A stretch of 42,541 nucleotides of DNA from a virus (IMGVR_UViG_2529293215_000009), one strand, 5' to 3'; numbered from the stretch's first letter, positions 39,591 through 39,889 are shown. Numbers and translations: made by a program. The notes: generated by a model not told the origin, from the letters alone.

Positions 39591-39616
39591 CCCAGCATAG
39601 TTCCAGCTATGCTGGG
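39591..39616 (+). terminator. intrinsic terminator (10-bp perfect stem)
   Basis: CCCAGCATAG ttccag CTATGCTGGG followed by TTTCACTTTTAT. Confidence 0.6.
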
Positions 39617-39668
39617 TTTCACTTTTATGTAGTATCCTGTTGATTTGAAACATACTACATATACGCGT

Positions 39669-39842
39669 GATCCTACCTTCACTGTATAAAAAGTCAATAA
39701 AATGATCATTTTATGATCGTTTTCACCACCTAACTCTTCGTTTTCTTTAAGTAAATAATCACCTCCCTGAATCATTGTTGATGACTTTTCAATCTATTTG
39801 TTGTATCAATTAAACAAATCGAATCGATCGTTTTTGTCGATC
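39669..39842 (+). promoter_or_regulatory. putative com-mom control region with clustered Dam (GATC) sites
   Basis: GATC at 39669, 39704, 39715 and, within duplicated TCGATCG octamers, at 39826 and 39839; all within 50-220 bp upstream of com. Confidence 0.5.
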
Positions 39843-39889
39843 GATTGCATGAGAAAGGCATCAACAACAAAGCAGGAGGTTATGCGGTC

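Follow-up and report, generated by a model that had tools for sequence, protein, structure and literature searches.

We consider it moderately probable that control of com-mom in this Mu-like prophage resides in a conserved block at approximately 39793–39889 that contains a predicted OxyR/Dam site, and not in the whole of the interval 39591–39889. A preliminary description had designated that entire interval the com-mom control region. The interval does lie upstream of the com-mom operon, and the hairpin, the inverted repeat, and the five GATC sites (39669, 39704, 39715, 39826, and 39839) on which the designation relied are all present, but the terminator, the palindrome, and the three upstream GATC sites belong to a segment that is variable in sister prophages. 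The conserved block is distinguished by the homology, conservation, uniqueness, and geometry of its GATC pair, and is predicted to be a compact variant of the Dam/OxyR control known from Mu, agn43, and gtr, one without the C box and the third GATC of Mu.

The window, by which we mean the whole stretch of DNA analyzed (IMGVR_UViG_2529293215_000009, 42,541 nt), is a Mu-like prophage of Shiga-toxin-type E. coli. Its region 39280–40100 occurs at 100% identity in many O157, O26, and O103 E. coli chromosomes and has matches in 233 of 5426 complete genomes, and related prophage DNA is annotated as "Bacteriophage Mu-like phage" and is inserted in Stx phages. The com gene (39890–40090, plus strand), preceded by an AGGAGG Shine-Dalgarno sequence (39874–39879, plus strand) that is kept across related loci, encodes a zinc-ribbon protein of 66 amino acids (Pfam Zn_ribbon_Com, 1.9e-12) that is named Com family protein in the NCBI genome annotation and shares 46% identity with Mu Com. 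The mom gene (40044–40781, plus strand) encodes a protein of 245 amino acids (Pfam Mom, 4e-77) with 80% identity to Mu Mom, and it overlaps the 3' end of com in the same layout as in Mu.

Upstream of com, gin (35963–36523) is followed by cargo genes for a SASA/DUF6645 esterase (36623–38662), a DUF1378 protein (38809–38991), and a DUF826 protein (39027–39272), and then by 617 bp of non-coding DNA (39273–39889). The cargo (36623–39272) between gin and com corresponds to a module whose usual place is downstream of stx in lambdoid phages, and its esterase is nanS-p-like, with approximately 77% identity to Stx-phage copies. The Mu-like right end (…GCGTTTTTCA) lies approximately 80 bp past mom, at 40800–40860. 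The DNA past this end differs from the flank of the same prophage in strain E2855, in which it sits inside a lambdoid prophage, adjoining ninG and Q; such differing flanks are consistent with transposition to different sites. Two long stretches of the window are free of GATC: 6164–10838 (4675 bp, with 15.5 sites expected from dinucleotide content) and 34379–36808 (2430 bp, with 8.6 expected on the same basis). These values suggest strong local avoidance of GATC in the early region and around gin. Unlike the two GATC-free stretches, the late region contains about the expected number of sites.

The central element of the conserved block is GATCG-N7-CGATC at 39826–39842, two Dam sites 13 bp apart that are predicted to constitute a methylation-sensitive element. 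This is the sole GATC pair spaced by exactly 13 bp, and the sole occurrence of GATCG-N7-CGATC, in the 42.5-kb window. Both sites are embedded in duplicated TCGATCG motifs; these had been described as octamers, and two copies are indeed present, the unit being a 7-mer. Together the copies make up a perfect inverted repeat of 9 bp, AATCGATCG-N7-CGATCGATT (39822–39846). For comparison, 94 loci coding for Mom relatives were collected and the sequence preceding com was taken from each. Nearly every lineage examined, of both Mu type and compact type, had the 13-bp pair conserved ahead of com, and in every variant of the window clade (com 94–100% identical) the pair and its flanks were invariant while neighboring bases varied. 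The conserved core as a whole (39793–39846, plus strand) was nearly invariant in sister prophages and could be aligned with the L044/L158/L248 lineage. Spacings of 18 plus 13 bp were found in Mu, Chuche, L093, L007, and L047, and of 31 plus 13 bp in L045, L046, and L005; in the window clade, only the 13-bp spacing is found, and the position of GATC I reads TATC/ATCAAT.

Homology with Mu is apparent from the alignment of the window sequence ATCAATTAAA caaatcgaa TCGATCG tttttgtc GATCGATT with ATCAATTAAA TCGATCG gtaataca GATCGATT of Mu, the Pmom sequence aligned to the GATC pair region being ATCAATTAAATCGATCGgtaatacaGATCGATT. When aligned as a module, the window reads GAATCGATCGTTTTTGTCGATCGATTGCAT and agn43 reads TTATCGATCGTTTATATCGATCGATAAGCT, with the same form in Mu, in Chuche, and in both P22 gtr pairs. 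Expressed as the half-site ATCG-N7-CGAT, the 13-bp pair is found in the window as GATCGTTTTTGTCGATC. The Dam/OxyR reading given earlier to the TCGATCG-embedded sites holds up well, in that they are homologous to GATC II and III of Mu Pmom and match validated OxyR/Dam switches. We also surveyed viral contigs for CGATCG-N7-CGATCGAT, which occurred in at least 120 stretches, most of the matches being unrelated GC-rich coding sequence; among the matches listed, com follows 16 of 133, and these add the variants L158 and L248.

The OxyR consensus ATAGnTnnnAnCTAT-N7-ATAGnTnnnAnCTAT was scored along the whole window (42,505 positions), and four of the five best positions (at least 13/20) fell at 39774–39841. 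In composition-matched shuffles of 39757–39889, the probability of a maximum of at least 13 was 0.019, and four positions of at least 13 arose in none of 5000 shuffles. The OxyR-like full site (39805–39841) matches 13 of 20 consensus positions and comprises the half-sites ATCAATTAAACAAAT and ATCGTTTTTGTCGAT, 22 bp apart from start to start, so that the GATC-containing half-site has a second half-site in helical phase (ATCAATTAAACAAAT, 22 bp upstream), as looked for in a tetramer site. On the same scale, Mu scores 13, agn43 14, and P22 gtr 18 (with 32-bp phasing); the match in the window is a modest one (13–14/20 versus 18/20 for P22 gtr) that equals the validated Mu site. No good partner half-site was present in the window at the gtr-like spacing of 32 bp. 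The element passes, at the level of sequence, the tests for a candidate Dam/OxyR operator.

Mu mom is the textbook case of a toxic gene for DNA modification controlled by Dam, OxyR, and an activator. The window resembles Mu Pmom in its location directly upstream of overlapping com-mom genes, in the arrangement ATCAATTAAA..TCGATCG..GATCGATT with the 13-bp spacing of GATC II and III, in its short leader with an AGGAGG Shine-Dalgarno sequence, and in the 80% identity of Mom. It departs from a Mu-type Pmom in C box, spacing, and number of GATC sites: it has two GATC where Mu has three (18 plus 13 bp), it lacks the CCATAAyC C box, the T6 run, and the TAAGAT –10 element, and its last GATC is 51 nt from the com ATG instead of 78 nt. 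The predicted OxyR half-sites are 22 bp apart in the window and 13 bp apart in Mu. The predicted site would also overlap the promoter, whereas in Mu it is located upstream, the footprint being reportedly at –104 to –59 according to Boelker and Kahmann in 1989. The regulators themselves have diverged, Com being 46% and the C protein 39% identical to those of Mu, with a different promoter box.

The module of agn43 (flu), ATCGATCG-N7-CGATCGAT, is almost identical to that of the window; only the 7-nt spacer differs, and the GATC spacing is likewise 13 bp. Its OxyR site, which scores 14 compared with 13–14 in the window, covers the transcription start or lies just past it. The agn43 region differs in its clear TAGAAT –10 element and in a third GATC, located 19 bp upstream (at +1). 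In P22 gtr, where each 13-bp GATC pair is contained in a single OxyR half-site, OxyR binding is lost on methylation (PMC2909390). The window shares with P22 gtrABC this placement of a 13-bp pair inside a single half-site (ATCG-N7-CGAT; both gtr pairs read ATTGATCG-N7-CGATCAA), as well as the context of a phage-borne operon for surface or DNA modification. The promoter-proximal gtr pair overlaps the –35 region (GATC at –46 and –33), and the predicted placement of the GATC pair over the –35 in compact relatives is close to that of this repressing OxyR site (–46/–33). The gtr region, however, comprises three half-sites at 32-bp intervals, and its two GATC pairs provide alternative activating and repressing sites, whereas the window has one pair and 22-bp phasing. 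Further counterparts are the compact cassettes of Chuche and of the Mu-like IMG/VR contigs L044–L046, L158, L248, and L005, which have the GATCG-N7-CGATCGAT module, 51–54 nt between the last GATC and the com ATG, and no C box. The L044 group also possesses the upstream block TTG.TTGTAT..ATTAAA.AAATC of the window. These relatives differ in having a recognizable –10 and, in many cases, a third GATC located 18 or 31 bp upstream, both of which are missing from the window clade.

The spacing between the last GATC and the com ATG was bimodal across loci, at 76–81 nt for the Mu type and 51–57 nt for the compact type, the latter consisting of the window clade, the P2-like phage Chuche, L044–L046, and L005, all without a C box. 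In the window, it is 51 nt to the com ATG and approximately 35 nt to the Shine-Dalgarno sequence. Compact relatives have a –10 element (TATACT, TATAGT, TATCAT, or TAGATT) 12–19 nt after the last GATC, from which a transcription start approximately 28–30 nt before com is predicted, and the GATC pair would cover the –35 and spacer. All compact relatives have a poor –35, and the window clade has poor core promoter elements. At the position of the –10, the window clade has a hypervariable patch of 13–16 nt (39847–39862, plus strand), placed between the GATC pair and the leader, that reads TGAGAAAGGC in the window; 39847–39859 accounts for 10 of 19 variable columns and for the only indel in an otherwise invariant 97-bp block. 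The patch exists as at least five alleles, one with a 6-nt insertion. Some alleles read AAAGAT and resemble the TAAGAT of Mu.

No convincing sigma-70 promoter was recognizable upstream of com in the window. A weak candidate, ATGACT-17-TATCAA (39781–39809, plus strand), has a low score of 3.5 and a predicted start at approximately 39816. Its counterpart in L042 and L024 reads ATGACA-17-TATCAA, and the ATGAC and TATTTGTTGTATCAA blocks are conserved in these two loci despite diverged flanks. A pairing of 39766–39788 with 39854–39876 that could mask the Shine-Dalgarno sequence was considered and set aside, being not conserved in L042 and L024. Given that com begins only 51 nt after the last GATC, with no C box between, the predicted OxyR site would have to overlap the region bound by RNA polymerase, and this would apply to either promoter position. 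With a start at approximately 39861–39866, as in the compact relatives, the overlap would fall at the –35 and spacer; if ATGACT-17-TATCAA were used, the site would extend from about –11 to +26, as in agn43.

In the mechanism that we propose, GATCG-N7-CGATC (39826–39842) would form one half of an OxyR tetramer site (39805–39841). By homology with Mu Pmom, agn43, and P22 gtr, OxyR would bind 39805–39841 when both GATC sites are unmethylated or hemimethylated, and full Dam methylation would block binding and so release the com-mom promoter. Bound OxyR would repress by occlusion at the promoter, as opposed to repression from upstream in Mu. The homology of the genes and their overlapping layout suggest that Com would then activate translation of mom, as it does in the Mu regulatory network (PMC3378877). 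The mechanism as set out would operate independently of C.

A different possibility, which we judge unlikely though deserving of serious attention, is that the promoter depends on an activator: C or another factor would act at a divergent site within 39793–39846, with Dam and OxyR providing an additional gate as in Mu. The poor core promoter of the window clade and the poor –35 of all compact relatives would be explained in this way, as would the conserved block that the window clade and L044/L158/L248 have in common ahead of the GATC pair, and late-only expression of a toxic gene would need such control. In Mu, mom is C dependent (PMC4461284), and the four late promoters have in common CCATAAyCCC immediately before the –35. 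In the scanned early-to-late junction region of the window, a single Mor/C-family protein is encoded (12207–12632, just upstream of lys); it has 141 amino acids, with 39% identity to Mu C and 27% to Mor. Upstream of lys (12634–12650) and I (20561–20577) is a common box, ATyCCGCAAArCCyGCC, 32 nt before TTAyGCT. In relatives whose C protein is 83–88% identical, this box, which differs considerably from the CCATAAyCCC of Mu, is conserved while the spacer varies. We infer that it is the C box of this phage, as defined by these two late promoters; a third copy for the tail genes was not found.

Neither this box (up to three mismatches, both strands) nor the Mu CCATAAyC box (both strands) has a match upstream of com or in the palindrome at 39626–39661. 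An nATAAyC box occurs at a fixed +14 after GATC III in most of the 76–81-nt loci and is absent from the window and from all 51–57-nt loci. The C control that had been expected for the operon has, in the sequence upstream of com, no C-type box to correspond to it. A divergent C site would still be compatible with the absence of a recognizable box. Candidates for the site of an activator are an ACAAA-N14-TTTGT dyad (center at 39825.5) and a perfect TGT-N12-ACA (39799–39816), the latter centered approximately 55–58 bp upstream of a start at 39862–39866. We take TGT-N12-ACA to be the P2/P4 Ogr/Delta activator-site consensus. As an Ogr-type site it was rejected, being absent from the cassette of P2-like Chuche and probably due to chance. 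A Mu-like C box, AAATAATCACC at 39753–39763, was likewise attributed to chance: it precedes the GATC pair instead of following it, and neither AST198 nor L042 conserves it.

The lack of a lys/I box match on either strand and the distribution of the cassette also speak against dependence on an activator. The same compact cassette occurs in P2-like Chuche, where it adjoins the integrase gene, and appears to work in different regulatory backgrounds; to our knowledge, a Mu C-type activator is not expected in Chuche. In E. coli AST198, it precedes a different modification gene, which argues that it is portable.

That com-mom is a decaying relic, no longer transcribed from a promoter of its own in this lineage and with a GATC pair that persists by descent only, we regard as improbable. 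The –10 position is degenerate and hypervariable, and expression of mom is cytotoxic in Mu (PMC3378877), such that silencing could be favored in a prophage. On the other hand, dozens of contigs and upwards of 200 E. coli genomes carry com and mom as intact open reading frames at 94–100% identity, no variation is seen in the GATC pair or its flanks while bases beside them vary, and a relative of the window, the Mu-like prophage Sp18 of O157 Sakai, has been described as intact (PMC2669165).

Throughout the window clade, only 39793–39889 and a small hairpin at 39281–39303 are common to all members. In L042 and L024, which represent 10 contigs and whose com is 95% identical, approximately 39305–39790 is replaced by unrelated DNA; in FORC069 and STEC1587, the accessory segment is only half present, 39500–39889 being the sole common part; and in AST198 it is missing, with the junction at an 8-bp repeat, AATCACCT. 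Among 235 E. coli records with a match to the region, only 203 carry at least 80% of 39305–39790. Sister phages without the segment have the same com, a C protein that is 83–100% identical, and the same lys-promoter box. In AST198 (L133, NZ_AP043606.1, 1500–2840), the same com and control block (equivalent to window 39757–39889) precede a DNA cytosine methyltransferase gene instead of mom. Since the segment is absent or replaced in sisters with the same com, the hairpin at 39590, the palindrome, and the GATC sites at 39669, 39704, and 39715 are, as judged from this comparison, probably in a dispensable accessory slot that is separate from the com-mom switch. The segment may at most insulate com-mom from read-through.

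A minus-strand open reading frame at 39311–39775 (an NCBI hypothetical protein that matches phrog_26524) was rejected as a gene, its frame being broken or changed in L025, L029, L043, L031, L020, and others, and a CPAC..CPAC frame of 55 amino acids embedded in it loses its ATG in L026 and L028. The segment was treated as non-coding.

The palindrome of the accessory segment had been described as a perfect inverted repeat with arms of 9 bp and as a candidate activator site. The repeat is perfect, and its arms measure 10 bp (TATGTAGTAT-N16-ATACTACATA, 39626–39661). When the 617-bp non-coding segment was simulated at matched composition, a perfect 10-bp inverted repeat with a loop of up to 25 nt arose in 1.8% of cases; the test was post hoc, and in that sense the palindrome is locally unusual. 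It does not correspond to an identifiable activator site, however: it matches neither the lys/I box nor the Mu C box and is missing from sister prophages (it is not conserved in L042, L024, or AST198). Its only variant copy, in L043, carries two disruptive, uncompensated changes, with no covariation. We also considered it as an operator for the phage repressor, Ner, or C, and rejected this because no related half-site was found in the early operator region or the late promoters.

Three GATC sites within approximately 50 bp (39669, 39704, and 39715; 39669–39718), as previously pointed out, are present but are not remarkable by themselves, the same density occurring at 30388–30445. They are part of the accessory segment, have no conserved counterparts in L042, L024, or AST198, and show neither the 13- or 18-bp spacing nor the TCGATCG context. 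The non-coding DNA as a whole (39273–39889) contains seven GATC sites compared with 3.0 expected. The site at 39704 is the center of a perfect 18-bp palindrome, ATAAAATGATCATTTTAT (39697–39714). Adjoining this palindrome is a promoter-like TTGACT-16-TAGGAT on the minus strand whose –10 overlaps the GATC at 39669. A Dam-sensitive divergent promoter at 39670–39714 is possible, with a promoter match that is at chance level.

The hairpin at 39590–39625 (plus strand) resembles an intrinsic terminator, with a stem of 11–13 bp and a T-rich tail; 39590–39617 reads ACCCAGCATAG-N6-CTATGCTGGGT and is followed by the T-rich TTTCACTTTT. A terminator scan gave it 13 pairs, and with its G+C-containing stem before a T-rich tract it is by sequence a putative intrinsic (Rho-independent) terminator; its RNA fold is approximately –21 kcal/mol (z = –3.7 to –8). 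Terminator-like sites number six in the region, compared with 0.8 expected. This hairpin is absent from L042/L024 and AST198, and its sole likely role is probably to stop read-through. The likelier terminator of the cargo genes is the hairpin ACCGGCAGG-TTTC-CCTGCCGGT (39281–39303, plus strand), which lies directly 3' of the DUF826 stop codon and is kept, with wobble-compatible changes, in L042, L024, FORC069, and STEC1587, where the DNA to its right differs.

Two alleles of the 39590 hairpin are in circulation, that of L030/L043 and that of the window. A unit consisting of GAAGTAAAGCATTGATGCAA, a spacer, the hairpin, and TTTATGTAGT (window 39553–39635) is tandemly duplicated in STEC1587 (L101, approximately 1560–1700) and may represent the 3' terminus of a gene for a small RNA. 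A plus-strand small RNA might extend from a promoter-like TTTACA-18-TAGGAT (39513–39542), itself a match at chance level, to the terminator at 39625. The module boundary in FORC069 and STEC1587 is compatible with such an RNA at 39513–39625, and an Rfam scan of 39000–40900 returned no significant match.

That all of 39591–39889 is a Mu-style Pmom, with five GATC sites serving Dam and OxyR and the palindrome serving as a Mor/C-type activator site, is in our view very improbable: the features are real and locally enriched, the phage has a Mor/C-family protein, and Mu mom needs C, but the palindrome ends at 39661, 229 bp upstream of the com ATG and far from a plausible promoter, its half-sites match neither ATyCCGCAAArCCyGCC nor CCATAAyC, it shows no covariation, the upstream GATC sites lack the diagnostic spacing and context, and sisters whose com is the same, and whose C protein goes with the same Plys box, lack the segment or have other DNA in its place.

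Location of the com-mom switch in the conserved block corrects the annotation of this region, placing the conspicuous palindrome and terminator outside the switch. Much of the biology is largely predictable from Mu. The presence of the compact cassette both in a P2-like phage and before the AST198 methyltransferase gene suggests a portable cassette under the control of host factors. We raise, as a tentative extension, the view that the compact com cassette works on its own, independently of an activator, as an epigenetic switch like those of agn43 and gtr. If this were true, the cassette would move between Mu-like and P2-like phages, with mom under its control in the window and a cytosine methyltransferase gene in AST198, and hypermodification in lysogens could be phase variable or dependent on replication and methylation state instead of on a late activator. 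We know of no mom locus for which phase variation has been shown. The prophage family is common in Shiga-toxin-producing E. coli and has kept the OxyR module, the C box having been lost or never present. [quoted passage not shown]
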